A program made the translations under genes and the position numbers. Of a stretch of 9,100 nucleotides of DNA, positions 1-9,100 are shown piece after piece; within the stretch, counting starts at the first letter, position 1; each line of letters begins with the position of its first letter. Origin of the DNA: a virus. Taxonomy: Duplodnaviria; Heunggongvirae; Uroviricota; Caudoviricetes. The notes below the pieces were generated by a model. That model saw only the letters and a program-made list of their open reading frames with translations. It was not told the origin of the DNA and ran no database searches. The stretch covers positions 1-9,100 of the IMG/VR virus record IMGVR_UViG_2684622620_000015, one strand, 5' to 3'.

Positions 1-405
1 ATGGATCAGGTCGTTGTTTTTCAAAAGATGTTTGAGCAAGTGAGAAAAGAGCAAAACTTCTCCTGGTTTTATTCAGAATTAAAACATCACCGTATTGCAC
101 ATTACATTTATTATCTGGCTACGGATAACATCAGAATTATTACTCACGATGACACGGTTTTGTTATTAAGAGGAACCAGGAACCTGTTAAAAATTAGTAC
201 GACCAAGAACCCTGCTAAAATAAAAGAGGCCGCATTGCTTCATATTTGCGGAAAATCTACATTTCGGGAATACTGTTCAACACTAGCAGGCGCGGGCGTT
301 TTCCGGTGGGTTACTGATGTTAATCATAACAAACGCAGTTACTACGCCATTGATAATACGCTTTTATATATTGAAGATGTAGAAAATAATAAACCATTAA
401 TCTAG
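1..405 (+). CDS. ycgX: YcgX-like small protein of unknown function (DUF1398-type), 134 aa, apparently complete
   Basis: ORF starts with ATG at window position 1 and ends with TAG at 403-405. Length and N-terminus (MDQVVVFQKMFEQVRK...) match my recollection of E. coli YcgX, which lies next to iraM in K-12. AT-rich, host side of the prophage junction. Recognition is from memory only. Confidence 0.65.
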   Translation: MDQVVVFQKMFEQVRKEQNFSWFYSELKHHRIAHYIYYLATDNIRIITHDDTVLLLRGTRNLLKISTTKNPAKIKEAALLHICGKSTFREYCSTLAGAGVFRWVTDVNHNKRSYYAIDNTLLYIEDVENNKPLI

Positions 406-615
406 CTAAAGTTGGATGCTTAAGAAATGCTTCATAATTCAGTAAGGCATTAGCATAATGGGAATAAAAGTACAGAGACTATCCCTATGGATGATAAATA
501 CTGTCCTTTTATTGCTACCCATAAATAATCACCATGCCAATACTATCAAATTGATATTTGAAATGTGATCACTTGACTTTCTATACGTTATTTTATAACG
601 GTTAATATATTTATA

Positions 616-664
616 AAAACAACGGGTGTGCCATACGCCCGTTTCAATACTTAACGCACATGTG
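616..664. repeat. About 48-bp hairpin-containing element, copy 1 (degenerate copy of the icd terminator region)
   Basis: Roughly 85% identical by eye, in direct orientation, to 1476-1521. Contains the palindrome AACGGGTG-tgccata-CGCCCGTT (621-643), which has a G.U wobble as + strand RNA and a C.A mismatch as - strand RNA. A T-run follows on the minus strand (rc of 611-620 is GTTTTTATAA). Confidence 0.6.
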
Positions 665-1100
665 TTTTGGTTTAGTCATCATCCAGTTATATGTATTTTA
701 GCCAGGAACAGGTTAAACCTTTCCTATATAACTCAAAAATTGAAACCTTATTCTCATGTCATGCTTATATTCATTATTATCGTTATATAAAAAGGCAACC
801 ATAATGTTTAGCAAATTGGCACAAAGTAGCATAAAGGCTATGTTTTAATTACAGGATGTTCAGTCATTTGAATGTATAACATTATAGCTAAACAAATCTA
901 AAACGAAGTGAATAATTTATTGTTTTCACTAAATCTCATTTTGTTTAACATCCATTGAGATTCCTTGCTTTAAATTTTGTTTTATATAAGCAATCGTTTT
1001 AATTAATTTATTTTTTGAAGGGGTAATATACTCATATGCAAAATAAAGAAATGAACATCCAAATGAACTATATTAAATACCGTGGGATAAGACATAACAA

Positions 1101-1424
1101 ATGAAGTGGATAGTAATTGACACGATAATTCAACCTTCATGCGGCATATCTTTTTCAGCCATATGGGGTAATATGAAAATGATCATCTGGTATCAATCTA
1201 CTATATTTCTCCCTCCTGGCAGTATATTTACACCGGTTAAATCTGGAATTATCCTTAAAGATAAAGAATATCCTATTACTATTTATAACATCGCACCATT
1301 CAACAAGGATTTATGGAGTCTACTCAAAAGCAGTCAAGAGTGTCCTCCAGGAGAAAGCAAAATAACAAATAAATGTTTGCATAATAGTTGCATTATAAAA
1401 ATATGCCCATATGGGCTCAAGTAA
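1101..1424 (+). CDS. iraM: Anti-adaptor protein IraM (RssB inhibitor that stabilises RpoS), 107 aa
   Basis: 107-aa [35 protein letters not shown]...ICPYGLK matches recalled K-12 IraM (YcgW/ElbA) in length and sequence with a few substitutions. Very AT-rich gene in an AT-rich intergenic context, in the expected position between ycgX and the icd 3' fragment. Confidence 0.8.
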
Positions 1425-1470
1425 AGGGTTTTATATAAATATGCTCGATATGCTATTAATAATACCTACA

Positions 1471-1503
1471 TAAATAAAACAACGGGCGTGTTATACGCCC
1501 GTT
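1471..1503 (-). terminator. Rho-independent terminator of icd (hairpin plus U-tract on the minus strand)
   Basis: Perfect 8-bp stem AACGGGCG (1481-1488) / CGCCCGTT (1496-1503) with a 7-nt loop. On the minus strand it is followed by GTTTTATTTA (rc of 1471-1480). It sits 24 bp downstream of the icd-fragment stop codon at 1527-1529. The + strand side lacks a U-tract, so it is a weak terminator at best for iraM. Confidence 0.75.
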
Positions 1504-1521
1504 GCAATATTAAACACATGT
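1476..1521. repeat. About 48-bp hairpin-containing element, copy 2 (includes the functional icd terminator)
   Basis: Direct repeat of 616-664; see that feature. The two copies bracket the roughly 810-bp AT-rich segment that carries iraM. Confidence 0.6.
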
Positions 1522-1526
1522 AGTGA

Positions 1527-1691
1527 TTACATGTTCTTGATGATCGCATCACCAAATTCTGAACATTTCAGCAGTTTAGCGCCTTCCATCAGACGCTCGA
1601 AGTCATAGGTTACGGTCTTCGCATTGATTGCGCCTTCCATACCTTTAACAATCAGGTCTGCGGCTTCAGTCCAGCCCATATGGCGCAGCAT
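1527..1691 (-). pseudogene. icdC: 3' fragment of isocitrate dehydrogenase gene (icdC), displaced by prophage integration; last 54 codons plus stop
   Basis: Reverse-complement translation of 1530-1691 gives [54 protein letters not shown] followed by TAA (rc of 1527-1529). I recognise this as the Icd C-terminus. An in-frame stop lies immediately upstream, so no Icd N-terminal part is present and this is a fragment. Confidence 0.85.
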
Positions 1692-1700
1692 TAGTTAGAT
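1686..1700. other. Approximate host/prophage junction (attR core region) at the end of icd homology
   Basis: Icd-like coding homology on the minus strand stops at about 1688-1692 (an in-frame TAA precedes it at 1695-1697). Sequence to the right is non-icd, AT-rich prophage DNA. The exact core cannot be defined without the attL copy. Confidence 0.5.
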
Positions 1701-1924
1701 GATTAAATCGTAACTATTTGACATAGCAACATAATTTTACTAATTTGCATATAACTCATTAGCTCTTAGCATTTCCATAACTCATTGATTATCAACATGT
1801 GTTTTTGAGTTTTGATAACCATTTTTAGCATAAAAATAGCAGTTAACATTTGCAGAAGTTAAGATCAGAGAAAATTTTTACCCTGTAAGGTATTACGTCT
1901 TAAATGTGACTTTAATAAACAATT

Positions 1925-2758
1925 TTATTTCTGTAATCGGTTTATATTAACGTAAAGCATCTCGATTAGCTCTTTTGCATTTTTACTATAGTGCAATTCT
2001 CTATGGCAATTCGGACAAAGGGCAACACAGTTATCTGTTGTATCAGCACCACCTGAAGACAGGGGAATTACATGATGCACTTCCAAGTATGGGCTTCCAT
2101 CATTTAAATAAAACGGAGCATTTTTACCACAGTTTTCACATATACCTTTACTTTGCTGTAAAATCCAAGCTTTTACCATCGGGTCTCGGAGATAAACTTT
2201 TTGTAGTCTTTCTACCTCAACTGGTTTTCTGGAGCCCTCGGGTTGACTCAACGTTTTCTTAATTAATTTACTAACCCTCATATTCAGAAGCGATTCATCA
2301 TCTGTAGGCTGTGAAAGCTCTGATAGATCTCCACGTATTATAGACGCCCAAAAACTGTCACTATAAATACCTGGAACATTTATCAATATTCGTTTCGTTC
2401 TATTGCCGGAAGGAATTTCCTTTCTCCCCGTACGACTAAAATAAGCCTGATAACCACACATCTTCAAGCGTATATCGCGGGGGCTATTACCAATCAAAGT
2501 AAAATATTCACCAGGATGGATTTTTCTTTCATCCAAAGAATGCATATGTTTTCTGACTGATGATGACGCCAGATATACTACGATTTGGGATACACCAGAA
2601 TCAACCAACCGTTCAATGATATAATCAAGAGCGATATTGTAATCTTTGTTTCTGTCACCCGGCCCCCACGACTCAAGGATTAGACCATAAACGCCATCCT
2701 CTTCACCTATCGAACACTCAGCTTTTAGTTCAATTCCATTATTATCAAAAACATGCAT
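1925..2758 (-). CDS. mcrA: McrA, HNH-family type IV (modified-cytosine-dependent) restriction endonuclease, 277 aa
   Basis: 277-aa ORF with a C-terminal HNH/zinc-finger nuclease motif visible in the translation (CENCGKNAPF...LEVHHVIPLSSGGADTTDNCVALCPNCHRELH). Length and N-terminus (MHVFDNNGIELKAE...) match recalled K-12 McrA. Located between pinE and the att junction as in e14. Confidence 0.9.
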   Translation of the reverse strand: MHVFDNNGIELKAECSIGEEDGVYGLILESWGPGDRNKDYNIALDYIIERLVDSGVSQIVVYLASSSVRKHMHSLDERKIHPGEYFTLIGNSPRDIRLKMCGYQAYFSRTGRKEIPSGNRTKRILINVPGIYSDSFWASIIRGDLSELSQPTDDESLLNMRVSKLIKKTLSQPEGSRKPVEVERLQKVYLRDPMVKAWILQQSKGICENCGKNAPFYLNDGSPYLEVHHVIPLSSGGADTTDNCVALCPNCHRELHYSKNAKELIEMLYVNINRLQK

Positions 2759-2859
2759 AGCATTAATCTTTAATCAATTTTTTACGACAATACTACTTTT
2801 ATTGATAAAATTGCAACAAGTTGCTGTTGTTTTATTTTGTACACAAAGTGTCTTTAACT

Positions 2860-3414
2860 TTATTTATCCCCTGCAGGAAACCTCTTATACAAAGTTGACA
2901 CACCAACATCATAGATAATCGCCACCTTCTGGCGAGGAATGCCTGATGCAATTAATCGCCCGGCCTGCGCCCATTGTTCTAGTGTAAGTTTGGGACGACG
3001 TCCCCCAATTCGTCCCTGTGCGCGAGCAGCTTCCAGTCCAGCTTTTGTTCGTTCAACAATCAGTTCTCGTTCCATTTCAGCTAGGGCACCCATCACATGA
3101 AAGAAAAAACGCCCCATCGGTGTGCTGGTATCAATAGCATCCGTCAGGCTGCGAAAATTAACGCCACGTTCGCGCAACTCCTCAACCAGAATGACCAGAT
3201 GCCGCATACTACGCCCCAGCCGATCCAGCTTCCAGACAACCAGAGTGTCACCTGCCGATAATGTCCTGAGCAGTTTTTTCAGTCCAGGCCTTTCGGACTT
3301 TGTACCGCTTATCTTGTCTTCAAAAATCAGCTCGCATCCTGCACAGTTCAGCGCATTACGTTGTAGATCTGTGTTCTGGTCATTTGTTGACACACGTACA
3401 TAGCCAATAAGCAT
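2860..3414 (-). CDS. pinE: Serine-recombinase DNA invertase (Pin; Hin/Gin/Cin family), 184 aa
   Basis: Translation MLIGYVRVSTNDQNTDLQRNAL...GRLIASGIPRQKVAIIYDVGVSTLYKRFPAGDK has the catalytic-Ser N-terminal motif and a C-terminal HTH typical of DNA invertases. I place the start at the ATG at 3414-3412, which is preceded by AGGGGG 7 nt upstream. The 196-aa ORF in the track adds 12 codons with no RBS and runs into the recombination-site region. Confidence 0.9.
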   Translation of the reverse strand: MLIGYVRVSTNDQNTDLQRNALNCAGCELIFEDKISGTKSERPGLKKLLRTLSAGDTLVVWKLDRLGRSMRHLVILVEELRERGVNFRSLTDAIDTSTPMGRFFFHVMGALAEMERELIVERTKAGLEAARAQGRIGGRRPKLTLEQWAQAGRLIASGIPRQKVAIIYDVGVSTLYKRFPAGDK

Positions 3415-3468
3415 GTTAAATCCCCCTGGTAAAAGCAGGAATGATGCCATTTGCTTGTTATTTCTTCA

Positions 3469-3494
3469 TTTTCATAAACATTGGTTTGGGAGAA
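3469..3494. other. Left inversion crossover site (pix/gix/hix-like 26-bp site)
   Basis: 'TTTTCATAAACATTGGTTTGGGAGAA' resembles the recalled gix/hix pattern (TTATCnAAAACC-nn-GGTTTnnnGATAA). It is 21/26 identical to the reverse complement of 5353-5378, with the inner 12-bp half-site plus central dinucleotide identical. It lies about 55 bp upstream of the pinE start. Confidence 0.8.
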
Positions 3495-3989
3495 GGTTCA
3501 GCATTACCTGTTGGTGCACCTGTTCCGTGGCCTTCAGAGACACCTCCAACAGGCTGGCTGAAATGCAACGGAGCAGCTTTTTCTGCTGAAGAATACCCGG
3601 AACTGGCAAAGGCTTACCCGACAAATAAATTGCCTGATTTACGTGGTGAGTTTATTCGTGGCTGGGATGATTCTAGAGGGATTGATACGGGGCGTTCATT
3701 GCTAAGTGGTCAGGCTGCAACATTTATTCGTACAGCTTTGCAGGATTATTACGGTTACGATCTGAATACTAATGTCAAAGTAGGTATCGCTTTTGCTACT
3801 GCTGATTCTGTTATAACTGTTGGAAACCCAGCTAATCCTAAAGCAGGAAATAATAGCGTTTATGTTCCTGCATCAGCAGATAACTCCATAACGGGTACTC
3901 AAAGGACAGCGGAGGATAATTTTACCGGGGCATGGATATCAATGCGCCCTCGTAACCTTTCATTTAATTACATCGTGAGGGCTGCATAA
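3483..3989 (+). CDS. stfE: Alternative tail-fibre C-terminal receptor-binding segment (StfE variable part); silent in this orientation
   Basis: The in-frame ORF (track 3441-3989) carries a tail-collar-type motif (LPVGAPVPWPSETPPTGWLKCNGAAFSAEEYPELAKAY...LPDLRGEFIRGW). Meaningful coding begins at the crossover site; the first 14 codons (MMPFACYFFIFINI) are an ORF-finder extension across the pin-proximal region. It would be fused to the constant N-terminus only after inversion. Confidence 0.75.
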   Translation, partial: GLGEGSALPVGAPVPWPSETPPTGWLKCNGAAFSAEEYPELAKAYPTNKLPDLRGEFIRGWDDSRGIDTGRSLLSGQAATFIRTALQDYYGYDLNTNVKVGIAFATADSVITVGNPANPKAGNNSVYVPASADNSITGTQRTAEDNFTGAWISMRPRNLSFNYIVRAA

Positions 3990-4591
3990 TGGATAATGCC
4001 GTATTAAATAGCGAGTTTATTGCCACGAAGGCGGGGGATATTACTGTCTATAATTATAATGGTGAAACACGAGAATATATTTCCACATCAACTGAATATC
4101 TTGCTGTTGGTGTCGGTATTCCGGCATGTTCCTGTTTAGATGCACCAGGAACATATAAAGCTGGTTATGCCATCTGCCGCTCTGCGGATTTAAACTCATG
4201 GGAATATGTGCCAGACCATCGCGGAGAAATCGTCTATAACACCGAAACGGGAGACGCCAAAGAAATCACAACTCCGGGTGATTACCCCGAAAATACAACC
4301 ACTATCGCCCCATTAACGCCATACGATAAATGGGATGGTGAGAAATGGGTGACCGATACTGAGGCACAGCATCACGCCGCAGTAGACGCGGCAGAAGCAC
4401 AGCGTCAGTCACTGATTGATACTGCAATGGCTTCCATTAGTCTGATTCAACTGAAATTACAGGCTGGGCGGAAGCTGATGCAGGCAGAGACCTCCCGACT
4501 TAACACTGTGCTGGATTACATTGACGCGGTGACGGCAACAGATACCAGCACCGCGCCGGATGTCATCTGGCCTGAACTGCCGGAGGAGTAG
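3989..4591 (+). CDS. tfaE: Tail-fibre assembly protein (Tfa/U family), 200 aa
   Basis: The start ATG overlaps the stfE-v stop (TAATG). The C-terminus ...DTSTAPDVIWPELPEE is the conserved Tfa C-terminal motif. Length matches recalled TfaE (200 aa). Confidence 0.8.
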   Translation: MDNAVLNSEFIATKAGDITVYNYNGETREYISTSTEYLAVGVGIPACSCLDAPGTYKAGYAICRSADLNSWEYVPDHRGEIVYNTETGDAKEITTPGDYPENTTTIAPLTPYDKWDGEKWVTDTEAQHHAAVDAAEAQRQSLIDTAMASISLIQLKLQAGRKLMQAETSRLNTVLDYIDAVTATDTSTAPDVIWPELPEE

Positions 4592-5006
4592 GCCATTCAA
4601 TATCTGGCGCACTGGAAGTATCGACCAGCTCCAGTGCGTCCAGATAATCCAGCCACAAATTATATTGCGCCAGTTCCTCACCTTTCAGGCGACCAATCGC
4701 CGCTTTACCAGGCCATTGCTTACTGTTCATGTTAGAGTTGGCCTGTTCAATAAGAATCTGCCTCTTGCGTTCTGCTGCTGCTACCTGCTCATCATGAGTT
4801 AGTGCTGGTAGTTCACCCCATTCCGGATAACCATCTTTTCCAGCGATGCGGACCTTCCCAGTTGGCGGTTCCTTTGTATATTCTGTAAATATATCTTCGT
4901 CACATTCAACACCATCAGTAGGCCAGCAATTTCCAGAAATATAATCTTCTTTCATTGATGTTGGATAGAAAGCGTTATTTATTGCACTGTACACATATTT
5001 TTTCAT
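4563..5006 (-). CDS. tfaP: Tail-fibre assembly protein (Tfa/U family) partnered with StfP
   Basis: The start ATG (5006-5004) is 1 nt after the stfP stop and is preceded by AGGT. The C-terminus ...VDTSSAPDIEWPTPPAVQAR carries the Tfa motif. The start could be the internal Met at codon 18; I recall K-12 TfaP as somewhat shorter than this 147-aa ORF. Confidence 0.75.
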   Translation of the reverse strand: MKKYVYSAINNAFYPTSMKEDYISGNCWPTDGVECDEDIFTEYTKEPPTGKVRIAGKDGYPEWGELPALTHDEQVAAAERKRQILIEQANSNMNSKQWPGKAAIGRLKGEELAQYNLWLDYLDALELVDTSSAPDIEWPTPPAVQAR

Positions 5007-5007
5007 T

Positions 5008-5655
5008 TTATTTACCTATAGCTATCCATCGACAATAAGTTGTATTGCTACCTGATGGCTGGGAACCCATTAAGCTAAAACCAAGACCGGTACTAACGGG
5101 TGTAGCAGCAAAAGAAGGAATTGAATTTACTGCAGATTCCGCATTATCATACGACACAACAATTTGCACGGTTGAGTAGTTGGTAAATGCAATGGGGAAA
5201 TTTATAAAAGTGGGAGATCCAATCGCTCCTGCCACTGAAACACCACGTTGAAAGATAGTTCCATCAGGGTAACGACACCAGCCATTTCCACTTGTAAAGC
5301 TAGACATGTCAGGAATTTGATTGGTGCCGGTCCCTACATTTCTTTTAGCCGCTTCTCCCAAACCAAGGTTTTCGAGAGCTATTTTCACCGTGCCATCCGA
5401 TTTGATATCGCCAAACGGATTCTTGCGGCTTAACAGCAGCGCGCGAAGTGCGGTAAGCAACTGATCGTGCCGCCCCTTCTCCAGGCTGGCACCGGATGCC
5501 TCCACAACGCTGCAAAGCTCCTCCTGCAACATGTCAAAGTAGTCATCATCCAGATCGGTGGCAGGCGTGCCAGTCTGGGGGTTACCACGGGTAAAACCGT
5601 TTTTACCCGCGCCGAACTTATCCTTCTGCGCGGTTTTCGTGTCTATACGATGCAT
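5008..5655 (-). CDS. stfP: Side tail-fibre protein: constant N-terminal part (outside the invertible segment) fused in frame to the StfP variable C-terminal domain
   Basis: 215-aa ORF whose ATG (5655-5653) is preceded by GGAG at 6 nt and lies 3 nt after the ymfQ stop. The crossover site sits in codons ...ENLGLGE..., about 96 codons in. The N-terminus [21 protein letters not shown]... matches recalled StfP. Confidence 0.8.
5353..5378. other. Right inversion crossover site (pix/gix/hix-like 26-bp site), inside stfP
   Basis: 'TTCTCCCAAACCAAGGTTTTCGAGAG' is the inverted partner of 3469-3494. It lies within the stfP reading frame at the constant/variable boundary. Confidence 0.8.
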
Positions 5656-5658
5656 GGA

Positions 5659-6243
5659 TTACTCCGGATATTTAAAAATTACGCAGGTATGCGACGGGCA
5701 GAGTTTGTTAAGAACACACTCGACAACGGTGTCCCCCCAGATACGCAGTGCGGAATCACAGGGATCGCCACATGTCATCCAGGTGGTGTTGGCGGCGGCT
5801 GGCATGTTGACCTGCCAGTAATACCGCCATTCCGGCGCATTCACAGCGTCAGTACAGGCCGATGAGCAGGTGAACGTGCTTTTGTCGTATCGCGTGATGG
5901 TGGCATCTGGTCTGCCCAGGGCAGCAAGCTGTGCAAGATAAAAATCCTCGTTGATGCCGCCCGCCAGGTTAACCTTCGCATCCAGCCGTTGCTGACGCTG
6001 GCGAAGGGTCTGTGTCCCTGCGGGAATACATTCATCCGGCAGGCCGCACAGACGCTCCCAGCGATTTATCAGTTCGGTGGTGGTGCGCGGATCCAGCTCC
6101 CGCATCAGGGCATCCGCACGCTGATGAACACGGGTTAATGACGGTGCTGCACCGGCAATCGCCGGATCGCTGACTGACCACGCCGGACCGGGCGGCAACA
6201 GTGCCGACAACAGACGGATATAATCATCGTTTGTCACGTCCAT
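5659..6243 (-). CDS. ymfQ: Phage baseplate/tail protein YmfQ (Mu gp48-like, DUF2313-type), 194 aa
   Basis: 194-aa ORF immediately upstream of stfP; its start overlaps the stop of the J-like gene by 10 nt. Length and sequence match recalled e14 YmfQ. Position corresponds to Mu gene R (gp48) in the P-Q-V-W-R-S-U order. Confidence 0.75.
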
Positions 6244-7292
6244 GAAATCGTCCCCAGAACTGCCAGCTCATTTTTTGCAATGGAGATATTGTCCGCCGGT
6301 GCAAGCAACTGATGGCTATATTCCCCGTTCGCACCGGAAATCGCTTCACTGATACGTGACACCTTCAGTTCTCCCTGCGGATAACCATCACGCAGCAGGA
6401 ACGAACGCAACTCCGCGGTAATGGCAGCCCGTATTTCTGGTGTGTCCGGCGTCACGCGGATATGAAAATCCACCGTATGTGCCACCGGCCTGAATACATA
6501 CAAATCAGAGCCTGCCACCGGGGCCAGTGGCCCGATATGTTGTCTTGCTGCCGTTTCCGTTGATTCTTCCGGAATGGGATTAATCAGGTCACTGCCGGCA
6601 ATCATCACACCGACAGTTCCCGTTCCCATCCAGTGACGGTATGTCCATGCGCGGGTAATGCCGGGCACTTCTTTAGCCCAGACGACATAGTCCCCGTCAG
6701 CCCCGCCCTGCGGCGTCCAGTAATACCGCTCAATGACGCGGGCGCGCCACGTTTCCAGATCTTCTGTATCAAATCCGCCTGTCAGGGTGTCAGTCACACC
6801 GGAAGACGGCAGACCATTCACCGGCGTGACCAGGATTAATGCCGTACCATCGTCAGCGTTACCGACCGCGCCTGCAGTTGAGCAGGCGATCGGCACGCGC
6901 AGGACACCACCGGAGCTGGTTGCATCGGCAGTTGCCGTGTACTGAACCAGGTCATCGCGCTGAATAACACTCCCGGCAGTCACCTTCAGGCCATCGCTGA
7001 CACCTTCCCAGCGCATATACCCGCTGGCAGCAGTGGCCCCCTTGCGCGGACACCGTTTCATCGCAGCATGTCGCGCCAGCCAGGACTCATCGCACAGGTC
7101 AGGCAGCATGTTCATTGCCAGATAATCGATGTAACCGTAAACCGTATGCAGCGCCGCCGCATACACCTTTGCCCGCACGTCTTCATCCATGCGCCGGAGC
7201 GTGTCGCTGACGTCCAGCCTGGCGAATAAATCGTTACGGAGCATACTGATATTTTCTGCCAGCGTCGGGCGCTGAAATTCACTGTCCGCCAT
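6234..7292 (-). CDS. jayE: Baseplate J-like protein (Mu gp47 / P2 gpJ family), 352 aa
   Basis: Size and position between the gp46-like gene and ymfQ; start overlaps the upstream gene by 14 nt, indicating translational coupling. Family assignment is by synteny and general resemblance, not a computed alignment. The symbol is given because this is the position of jayE in e14. Confidence 0.6.
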
Positions 7293-7707
7293 GCGTTATC
7301 GCACTCCACAGATCATCAAAAGAAATCATTACCGGTCCGTCACGACGCCAGAGAGTGATACTGTTACCCAGTTCATTAATCCCGGTGCGGCGGATATCCA
7401 GATCAATACGGGACACCACGCCGTCATCAATCATCCATTGCAGGCATTCGCGGATATACCCCCTTACCGTCTGCACCAGCTGATTGGTCAGTTTGCTGCG
7501 CTGAAGCAGCCACAGTCGGGAGCCGTAACGGTCATTCTGTACCGCAGGCCAGGTATCCCCCCACCATCCCATCGGGACGTCGGCGTTGTCATCAGGCTCC
7601 GCCCGTCGCCAGGTAAACAGGGAAATCACCACGGCGCGGGTCAGCGGATCCAGCGGTGCGCTGGCGCAGGTGCGTTTACCGTTCACCGTCAGCCACAGTT
7701 CCATCAT
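7279..7707 (-). CDS. Mu gp46-like baseplate protein (P2 gpW / T4 gp25-like family), 142 aa
   Basis: 142-aa ORF whose start codon overlaps the stop of the upstream ORF (ATGA). The small size and its position immediately 5' of the J-like gene are typical of gp46/gpW. Confidence 0.6.
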   Translation of the reverse strand: MMELWLTVNGKRTCASAPLDPLTRAVVISLFTWRRAEPDDNADVPMGWWGDTWPAVQNDRYGSRLWLLQRSKLTNQLVQTVRGYIRECLQWMIDDGVVSRIDLDIRRTGINELGNSITLWRRDGPVMISFDDLWSAITHGGQ

Positions 7708-8252
7708 GCCTCCATCGCTTTATCAGGTTTGTCGGTGTTACTGCCCTGACCGTTCTCTCTGTGACGATGCCCGTTATAGGCAAGCCGCATCGCTGACATG
7801 GTAGTGCCGCTGGAGTCGCACAGGTCTTTCACCTGTCCTGTCACTTCCAGGTCCATTTCAAAACGTGCTTTAGGTGAATTGCGAAACGTGATCGTTTTAC
7901 CTGCACCGTCCACCACGATCCCCTCCCGGGTCAGCGTCACGGACTGCCCCTGATCGTCATAGACAGCCACCTCACCCGTCTGCAGCCCTTTCAGGCGGTA
8001 GCGCCGGTCCGACACCGTAACAACCACCGCATGAGAACGGTCGCCATCCGGAAACAACACCACCGCTTCCGCACCGCTGTTTGCCCTTGCGGTAAAACCG
8101 TAGGGTTCAAGATGTTCAACCCCGGCTTTGGGTTCACCGGCAATCAGGGACACATCCACGGTCTGACATTTCGTGGCGGCACTGATGCTTTTCACCACGG
8201 CCCGCCCAATCAGGCCGAGGAGTTGTCGCTGCATGGCTTCAATCGCCCTCAT
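7704..8252 (-). CDS. Mu gp45-like baseplate assembly/spike protein (gpV family), 182 aa
   Basis: 182-aa ORF whose ATG (8252-8250) overlaps the TGA of the upstream gene by 1 nt (TGATG on the coding strand). Position and size match gpV/gp45 in a Mu-like baseplate operon. Confidence 0.6.
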   Translation of the reverse strand: MRAIEAMQRQLLGLIGRAVVKSISAATKCQTVDVSLIAGEPKAGVEHLEPYGFTARANSGAEAVVLFPDGDRSHAVVVTVSDRRYRLKGLQTGEVAVYDDQGQSVTLTREGIVVDGAGKTITFRNSPKARFEMDLEVTGQVKDLCDSSGTTMSAMRLAYNGHRHRENGQGSNTDKPDKAMEA

Positions 8253-9100
8253 CAGAACGGGTCCTCCTGTACTCTGGCTTTTTTCTTTTTCCGCGCGCCG
8301 GGATCTTCGGGTTCAGGCAGATAAGCATCAGGCGGGCCGACACGGATTTCCGTCAGGGTGCCGTTCTGGTCCTGAGTAAACGTGACTTCCGAAACAAGCA
8401 GTTCGGTATTGTCGAAACCACAGACCGGATCGAAGACAATCACCCGCTGGTTGGGCTGCCACAGCGTACCGTTACCCTGTCGCCAGCCCTGCACCACATA
8501 AGTGGTTTCATCCGTCCGCGCCGCCCGTTGTCGGGCTTCAAAGTCAGCACGCGCAATACAGCCTGCCCCCGTGGCCTGCCCTGTCTGCCTGATATACATC
8601 GGACGGTAACGGGCAATAAATGCGTCCTCTGTGCGGGCCCGCAGCGCAGTTGTGGTGGCCTCACCGAAATCATCGTCGTTTCCGGCACGCTGCCCCGCCA
8701 CCTGGTAAACAGAAAACCGCTCCCGGATACTCTTCTCCGTATCGCAGGAAAGGATGTTTTCCCCAAGTACCAGCGCGGTATGTGCCCGCGTTGAGCCAAT
8801 ACCGCCAATCACCAGCCTGCCGTGCGGGTCGTCGTAAGCCAGTGCCTGCTGCTGACCGAGTATTTTGTTGATTACCTCAATCACCGTTTCACCGTGATCA
8901 GGCTGGACATCAGGAATAACACCCGACGGCGCACCGCTGTTCACCACCTCAATGCCGAAAGGCGCAGCAAGCGCCTGCGCAATCTGTACCAGCGATCGTC
9001 CGTTAAACTGTGTCGGTTCGGCTGCACAGTCAATCAGGTCAGCGGTCAGACTGCGTCCGGCAATACCGGTGCTGACCGAACGGGCATCGTAACGAACGGG
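8252..9100 (-). CDS. Mu gp44 / P2 gpD-like baseplate hub protein, partial (5' end lies beyond the window)
   Basis: The track ORF begins at a GTG at 8947, but I translated the same frame from 8948 to about 9067 and found no stop, so the gene very likely extends past 9100. The C-terminus ends ...GARKKKKARVQEDPF. Assignment rests on synteny upstream of the gpV-like gene. Confidence 0.55.
   Translation of the reverse strand, partial: PVRYDARSVSTGIAGRSLTADLIDCAAEPTQFNGRSLVQIAQALAAPFGIEVVNSGAPSGVIPDVQPDHGETVIEVINKILGQQQALAYDDPHGRLVIGGIGSTRAHTALVLGENILSCDTEKSIRERFSVYQVAGQRAGNDDDFGEATTTALRARTEDAFIARYRPMYIRQTGQATGAGCIARADFEARQRAARTDETTYVVQGWRQGNGTLWQPNQRVIVFDPVCGFDNTELLVSEVTFTQDQNGTLTEIRVGPPDAYLPEPEDPGARKKKKARVQEDPF

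Follow-up and report, generated by a model that had tools for sequence, protein, structure and literature searches.

Two icd terminators around iraM: iraM as probable cargo of an older icd-integrating element in Escherichia coli

The 3′ end of icd is a described target of integrating elements. In Escherichia coli K-12 the prophage e14 leaves this end duplicated at attL and attR, as icd and icdC, according to Hill et al. 1989 as cited in PMC6379469. We describe here a stretch of 9,100 nucleotides (nt), positions 1–9,100 of the IMG/VR record IMGVR_UViG_2684622620_000015, in which iraM (1101–1424, plus strand), the gene for the anti-adaptor protein IraM of 107 amino acids (aa), stands between two direct copies of the icd terminator, copy 1 (612–663, minus strand) and copy 2 (1473–1521, minus strand). 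This whole stretch is called the window, and labels of the type L001 to L078 denote the loci and alleles compared with it. We think it probable that copy 1 and copy 2 represent one generation of the icd terminator and its successor, and that iraM is stranded cargo of an old element which had integrated at icd.

The closest described system is e14 itself. There an element lying inside icd supplies the 3′ end and the terminator, and the original ones are left as direct repeats at its far end, an arrangement that is also seen in the window at 1476–1691. Unlike e14, the pair formed by copy 1 and copy 2 has lost the displaced coding part, which is gone in the window and reduced to some 16–20 nt in the divergent allele L072, and the element between them is reduced to a cargo remnant of 810 nt without integrase. 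Phage 21 and lambda-like phages carry, like this locus, the last ~53 codons of icd and the same terminator hairpin, next to int. Their homology to the window begins at 1474, and in phage 21 the corresponding parts are annotated “terminator” and “ICDH-like protein”. They differ from this locus in being intact phages, with an arm that stops at the A-run before the hairpin and with no iraM.

Two further systems offer partial parallels. In genomic islands at tRNA genes, and in tandem accretion, the serial use of one site likewise results in nested direct repeats and makes precise loss possible; the repeats there are tRNA 3′ ends, whereas here the target is a protein-coding gene with its intrinsic terminator and the repeats are terminator hairpins. 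Among phage “morons”, iraL on the potB island of strain CFT073 (PMC4045071) belongs to the same protein family as iraM, and iraM has a moron-like cassette layout, consisting of an AT-rich upstream region, the open reading frame (ORF) and, in L072, a terminator of its own. Unlike a phage moron, the iraM found here has no recognisable prophage around it any more. That an integrating element displaces the icd 3′ end is an already known mechanism; here it clarifies the origin of iraM and its patchy presence.

The icd terminator and its second copy

A repeat search of the window gave a direct repeat of 43 nt (616–658 and 1476–1518) with 84% identity without gaps, which gapped blastn extended to 616–663 against 1476–1521, with 85.4% identity over 48 columns. 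The best local alignment of the two intergenic stretches scored 32.5, against 12.9 ± 1.7 (maximum 18.5) in 300 dinucleotide-preserving shuffles. A first-pass annotation of this DNA had reported a direct repeat of about 48 nt and 85% identity, and this is borne out, the similarity being far above that of shuffled sequences. Both copies contain the palindrome AACGGG(T/C)GTG...ACGCCCGTT, at 621–643 and 1481–1503. A longer repeat taken from the gapped alignment (579–663 against 1444–1521), once the basis of an attP-like model, was rejected as its extra part was not significant; the leftward extension alone (579–615 against 1444–1475) scored 7.5 against 9.2 ± 1.7 in shuffles.

On the minus strand, which is that of icd, copy 2 forms an 11-bp G+C-rich stem with seven G-C pairs, followed by UUUUAUUUAUG. 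Its fold of −26.2 kcal/mol (z = −5.4) and its U-run make it the sole strong terminator-like site in a scan of window 1–2000. It begins 5 nt past the stop codon of the icd fragment, and every related locus has this element after the icd stop codon, as has the intact icd of genomes without a prophage there. At the sequence level this agrees with the earlier description of copy 2 as a good intrinsic terminator for icd. What it adjoins in the window is, however, only a 3′ fragment of icd, an ORF of 54 codons plus stop (1527–1691, minus strand) which has been displaced by an e14-like prophage. This fragment is 100% identical to the Icd C-terminus in other loci and is annotated in E. coli RM10466 as an incomplete dehydrogenase lacking its N-terminus; genomes with an intact icd align with the window only as far as 1685–1691.

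Copy 1 starts 210 nt past the stop codon of ycgX, and among the window ORFs no minus-strand gene ends upstream of it. In the window its minus strand has an A.C mismatch and folds at −11.4 kcal/mol (z = +0.2) with the U-run present, and on the plus strand the mismatched position pairs as G.U (−17.6 kcal/mol). It had been described as an orphan with a mismatch in the stem about 215 bp beyond ycgX, which is accurate for the window, but the mismatch is lineage-specific. Three other alleles (L058, L059 and L060) keep a perfect stem and the U-run, the first two with folds of about −17 kcal/mol, and the inferred ancestral copy 1 differs from copy 2 only by a loop change of TT to CC, one T to C and one extra G. 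One stem change is found in the window lineage and three in the K-12 type, none of them compensatory. These changes would fit relaxed constraint on an element that has no gene before it and appears to be decaying in some lineages, and copy 1 may well be without present function.

The terminator palindrome of copy 2 has an inverted loop in L059, the TOE51/28Eco12 haplotype (GTGTTATAC changed to GTATAACAC); this looks like a template-switch type of change in the hairpin. No Rfam family reaches threshold for the element, which gives sub-threshold matches only. Among these is a match of copy 2 (1452–1522, minus strand) to tpke11 with 26.4 bits, against a gathering score of 43 (E = 0.006), probably a generic resemblance to terminators.

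The element is closely tied to icd. A scan of one genome per species (185,579 species, query AACGGGYGTGNNATACGCCCGTT) returned 15 loci, of which 14 abut the icd 3′ end, either chromosomal or prophage-borne, in Escherichia, Shigella, Citrobacter or otherwise-labelled contigs with E. coli-like DNA. The fifteenth is a lone similar hairpin in a metagenome-assembled genome (MAG) of the Aeromonadaceae. MAG contigs labelled Sutterella and Veillonella parvula (L010 and L011) hold E. coli icd and its flanks, with 93–95% nucleotide identity to window 1474–1693, and probably represent bin contamination. Within E. coli, 5,426 genomes were searched with a 59-nt query (word size 11, E ≤ 0.1), and at this low stringency gave a median of two and a maximum of five places per genome, so that the search for other copies of the 48-mer, as the first-pass annotation had proposed, disclosed no family at unrelated loci. 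The flank of copy 2 has 26 matches in viral contigs which, judged by match position only, look like prophage calls including the same chromosomal flank and not like free phages.

The divergent allele and the edges of the iraM segment

The two copies differ in their flanks. Flank L of copy 1 (566–615), which includes the A-run corresponding to the copy 1 U-tract on the minus strand, aligns with the sequence immediately beyond the icd terminator in Citrobacter braakii (L017) and in an element arm of Shigella flexneri (L009); for E. whittamii and Escherichia sp. E1V33 the alignment starts at 581 or 591. L′ (1425–1475, plus strand), which flanks copy 2, is iraM's own 3′ flank, conserved after iraM in L071 and L072, and is not significantly similar to L. 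Since it is the flank of copy 1, and not that of copy 2, which matches the icd-downstream flank elsewhere, copy 1 marks the ancestral position of the terminator. We might therefore regard it as a fossil icd terminator, displaced from icd.

A deeply divergent version of the whole block (L072/L073) is found in 19 of the E. coli genomes. Compared with the mainstream allele, L072 shows ~79% identity from ycgX through copy 1 (window 1–654), 73% in the iraM upstream region and 79% in iraM. Its gene order begins with bluR, ycgX, the flank, copy 1, the icd stop with the last codons, and ~215 nt without a match. There follow the iraM upstream region, a ymgB-like gene, and iraM with its 3′ flank and own terminator (GCCCCTTCGTAGAGGGGC and a T-run), and then trkG, an insertion sequence (IS) remnant, a 455-aa ORF, a flank termed Lc, the terminator and an intact icd. 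Altogether 6.3 kb separate the copies. L072 copy 1 could be aligned without gaps over 66 nt to window 1476–1541, that is, to copy 2 together with the icd stop and last codons, with 78.8% identity. The part downstream of the hairpin alone scored 15 against 10.3 ± 1.5 in shuffles (p about 0.009), and 13 of the 16 positions of the stop-codon/last-codon stretch match in register, by a hand count from the alignment. In L071 copy 1 is gone through a further deletion of ~460 nt.

Comparison with this allele bears upon the edges of the iraM segment. Window 660–706 is homologous to L072 6489–6534 (19.5 against 8.6 ± 1.4; 0/1000 shuffles). On the left, the repeat in the window ends at an ATG (660–662) with which the tail of the terminator closes and the iraM upstream region opens, and the icd remnant and ~215 nt of L072 are missing. 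On the right, AAAAC (1471–1475) ends the iraM flank, and the same AAAAC precedes the incoming terminator in L072. From these alignments both edges look like microhomology deletion joints, not insertion joints, which would also account for the 5 nt that separate the end of the repeat from the icd stop codon.

The history that we consider probable, that of iraM as stranded cargo, would have run as follows. An element integrating at icd would carry a substitute icd 3′ end and terminator, its integration restoring icd with the element's copy, while the old icd 3′ end and terminator would come to lie at the opposite end of the element. Copy 1, together with flank L, would then be the terminator displaced by the old integration, and copy 2 the terminator brought by the old element. 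This element would have been whittled down to a single cassette comprising the iraM upstream region, iraM as a phage-type accessory gene, and its 3′ flank. Two microhomology deletions would have led to today's 860-bp spacing, the one at the ATG removing the old icd coding remnant; with the one at AAAAC, the terminator belonging to iraM would have gone, along with whatever else of the element lay before the incoming terminator. The e14-like prophage would have repeated the process in the window, leaving copy 2 attached to a dead icd fragment. The copy pair, lastly, would provide a substrate for recombination and identical IS200C targets, and hence a path to clean loss of iraM.

The displacement step can be seen in living examples. 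In the window, copy 2 and the old icd end now lie at the far end of the e14-like prophage, and in O157:H7 SS52 the terminator and icd end stand directly after the prophage integrase gene (int). At the e14 attL of K-12, the hairpin after the live icd comes from e14 and has a re-paired stem (AACGGGAGCGTTACGCTCCCGTT), and beyond it lie flank Lc and then ymfD; the Lc end of the query alone was matched in ~480 further genomes. This e14-supplied icd terminator of K-12 (L078 1640–1665) has a different, fully pairing inner stem (AACGGGAGCG TTA CGCTCCCGTT) and is a third version of the element.

The relatives of iraM are phage genes. IraM homologues with 57–75% identity are all located in lambdoid prophages (Stx and others), between Q/stx (or lpxR) and nanS-p and antisense to the late genes. 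At the DNA level the match to phages covers only the iraM coding region (72%); no repeats of this kind flank the iraM-like gene of phages, and the 290 nt beside the icd remnant in L072 have no phage match. The GCCCCTTCGTAGAGGGGC terminator after iraM in L072 resembles one located after the iraM-like gene of Stx phage 1717 (GCCCCTCCGGAGAGGGGC). In prophages of E. albertii, relatives of ycgX with 69% identity occur as accessory genes between the genes for lysis and those for terminase, and relatives of YcgX in Escherichia sp. E10V10 and E. albertii are at unrelated loci or in prophages. It has been stated that iraM is on the e14 prophage (PMC4045071). This does not hold: in the window iraM lies outside the icd end displaced by e14, and in genomes without a prophage at this site it adjoins an intact icd.

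In the Stx2a and Stx2c phages (L019 4004–4327, L020 4004–4327, and L021 to L024) an IraM-like protein of 63–71% identity is encoded antisense, just downstream of stx2B and upstream of nanS-p, mostly without annotation. It is possibly a gene stabilising RpoS beside the toxin genes. A hmmscan of IraM (window 1101–1424) gave no Pfam family at E ≤ 0.01; precomputed tables list PF11183 (PmrD) for every member of the IraM family.

Genomes without iraM and the competing explanations

The full arrangement of ycgX, iraM and icd is present in 3,843 genomes of the E. coli set (~71%), and 488 (9%) have ycgX, one copy and icd with nothing between. The first-pass annotation had proposed that a single copy without an intervening segment in iraM-less genomes would support insertion. 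Exactly one copy is indeed what such genomes carry, but they are not all pristine empty sites, two lineages being recent losses. Because single-copy genomes include secondary losses, this comparison by itself cannot separate insertion from deletion.

The first of these lineages is L001, a singleton without iraM. Its 2-kb left flank is 0.0% different from that of L005, an iraM-bearing S. flexneri allele (99.8% identical to the window), and its single copy has the private copy-2 bases of the window lineage. On the sequence evidence it is a recent deletion of iraM, with the crossover in AAAACAACGGG. The second involves strain 28Eco12 (L077), in which an IS200C lies beside each of the two copies, at the same position (between AAAAAC and AACGGG) and in the same orientation, at about 2130–2830 and 3700–4410. 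MMC-J-0078 (L076), 99.96% identical to it, has one IS200C and no iraM. To judge from such near-identical neighbours, both L001 and L076 are clearly secondary losses.

The other sampled iraM-less genomes constitute one clade with the sit island at icd, differing by 2.6–3.9% from the iraM-bearing alleles. With L072/L073 as outgroup, this clade is sister to all mainstream alleles that carry iraM. Here too a loss is probable; because the outgroup shares the order of copy 1 and iraM, and its divergence is about the same over ycgX as over iraM, one loss is more parsimonious than two gains of this architecture.

How else might the two copies have arisen? The first-pass annotation favoured insertion of the iraM segment with duplication of its target. 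Of this, the inserted DNA between two icd terminators stands, but the duplication does not, as copy 1 keeps the ancestral flank and in L072 is joined in register to an icd end. In a direct insertion the iraM cassette would have entered at or beside the icd terminator, and this, perhaps with a few icd codons, would have been duplicated by staggered breaks or by template switching at the hairpin, the copies then diverging in place. Such an event would suit the direct repeats which flank the segment and the empty sites with one copy; the ancestral copy 1 differs from copy 2 at only ~4 of 48 positions, and the palindrome has undergone other changes resembling template switches, for example the loop inversion. 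In L072, however, a single duplication would have to take in at least 130 nt, from the flank through the terminator into the icd codons, and the flanks concerned (L* and Lc) are very different, which points to two sources rather than one duplication. Lc is, furthermore, the arm carried by e14, and the edges of the repeat in the window are deletion joints relative to L072. Neither terminal inverted repeats nor a transposase ORF was found in the segment between the copies by repeat and ORF searches, and in place of the short identical repeats of a transposon target-site duplication there are repeats of 48 nt with 84–85% identity. Direct insertion is, in our opinion, unlikely. The other suggestion of the first-pass annotation, a small dispersed intergenic repeat family, has nothing in its favour beyond the two copies of the window; as the copies are linked to icd, occupy so few places per genome and match no Rfam family at threshold, it is almost certainly wrong.

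The remaining alternatives concern what happened to the locus later. The single-copy, iraM-less state of the sit-island clade might be ancestral in E. coli and iraM a subsequent gain within the species. This would agree with the position of that clade as the basal split of the mainstream alleles, with its single copy being entirely of copy-2 type, and with CFT073, which is without iraM and has iraL (PMC4045071). Against it, copy 1 and iraM already stand in this order in the outgroup L072/L073, and since the identity there is ~79% (1–654) and 73–79% (iraM region), the block of copy 1 and iraM predates the split. In addition, ycgX of the iraM-less clade is only ~3% from the iraM-bearing alleles, the iraM segment is as diverse as its flanks or more (up to 6.8% against 3.9%), and clean secondary losses have been demonstrated twice; a late gain appears quite improbable. 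Copy 1, on the other hand, might have been kept by selection, which would be compatible with the proposed origin: as a second icd-sense terminator it could shield ycgX and ymgL from antisense read-through, or as a 3′ stabilising hairpin for ycgX–ymgL transcripts it could insulate the iraM promoter. Several deep lineages have the perfect stem and U-run, and the change in the window still pairs as G.U on the plus strand. That stem-breaking, uncompensated changes have occurred in two lineages (one in the window, three in the K-12 type), that the plus strand has no U-run, and that copy 1 is absent from L071 and from all iraM-less genomes make selection doubtful. A bolder proposal is that the terminator hairpin with its A-run is a recurrent site of recombination and insertion, and the copy pair an on/off module for iraM, which we consider rather improbable. 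In such a module loss would occur by recombination between the copies or between IS200C elements and regain by homologous exchange, and copy 1 would be retained as an iraM insulator that enables the switch. If it were true, lineages would switch the PhoPQ-to-RpoS regulatory link off and on.

We prefer to see iraM as the stranded cargo of an older icd-integrating element, and the following observations weigh against this preference. The junction expected of a circular iraM element was not found in the 5,426 genomes, which gave only the normal arrangement in two pieces. The loci of possible outgroup species are occupied or altered: a prophage occupies icd in E. albertii and in Escherichia sp. 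MOD1-EC7003, ycgX is missing at icd from E. whittamii, and different genes are found at this place in E. whittamii and E1V33. What remains of icd coding sequence next to copy 1 is short (~16–20 nt) and occurs only in L072/L073, a rare allele; beside copy 1 of the window none was detected (11.5 against 10.6 ± 1.5 in shuffles). In neither the window nor L072 do the copies still enclose an att core or a phage structural gene, and an integrase gene, present in the intact comparators, is missing both from window 664–1475 and from the 6.3 kb of L072, where only an IS5/IS1182 remnant is present. As the arm brought in at L072 is of the e14 type (Lc), its cargo could come from more than one element.

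Neighbouring features and the meaning of the locus

Window 1–1700 shows 99.8% identity to E. coli RM10466 and 95.8% to K-12. The left neighbour of the repeat pair is ycgX (1–405, plus strand), an ORF for a DUF1398 protein (PF07166, E = 1.7e-47) so annotated in the matching genomes, where the small ORF ymgL (458–568, plus strand, 36 aa) is annotated as well. Between the copies, where the G+C content is 25–34%, lies the AT-rich iraM upstream region (660–1100, plus strand; 25–32% G+C), with ~72–73% identity to L071–L073. The first-pass annotation took iraM, an ORF annotated under that name in the matching genomes, for the only gene of the segment, overlooking the annotated ymgK (804–848, plus strand, 14 aa) within the upstream region. 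The K-12 counterparts of both ymgL and ymgK have been detected as tagged proteins (PMC6001520).

To the right of the icd fragment, the window consists of the right end of the e14-like prophage (1692–9100), delimited by alignment and by the annotation of RM10466, in which the region 99.8% identical to the window is annotated as a full-length prophage. It includes mcrA (1925–2758, minus strand), a 277-aa ORF with an HNH domain, pin (2860–3450, minus strand), and tail-fibre and baseplate genes. Beside pin there is a 20-nt inverted repeat (3476–3495 and 5352–5371), with arms 95% complementary and 1856 nt apart, which brackets opposed tail-fibre ORFs and is probably the Pin-invertible segment of the prophage.

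Other alleles carry further genes at this site. L072 has an additional gene of the YmgB/AriR family (6902–7129) and one annotated trkG (8435–9892); its 455-aa ORF has no Pfam family, and in a search of the E. coli genomes its cargo was confined to the same 19. An integrated element of S. flexneri SFBU0723 has, at the end nearer to icd (L009 2106–4369), a gene pair for an AAA_21 ATPase and an HNH nuclease, which we take to resemble a Septu-type defence pair. In some strains (L055 and L006) IS1 elements abut or truncate the iraM region, and in 2017-19-1CC the iraM upstream region is linked through IS1 copies with hlyE and ycgN, ycgX to ycgM being deleted.

If iraM is phage-type cargo stranded between two generations of the icd terminator, this would explain the position of a studied regulator of RpoS stability, and also why about one E. 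coli genome in ten, that of CFT073 included (PMC4045071), is cleanly without it. The locus further cautions that a “clean empty site” is no proof that the occupied state is the derived one. The icd 3′ end would constitute a layered record of integration, with three generations of terminators in K-12-type strains, which may be used for placing events in order.

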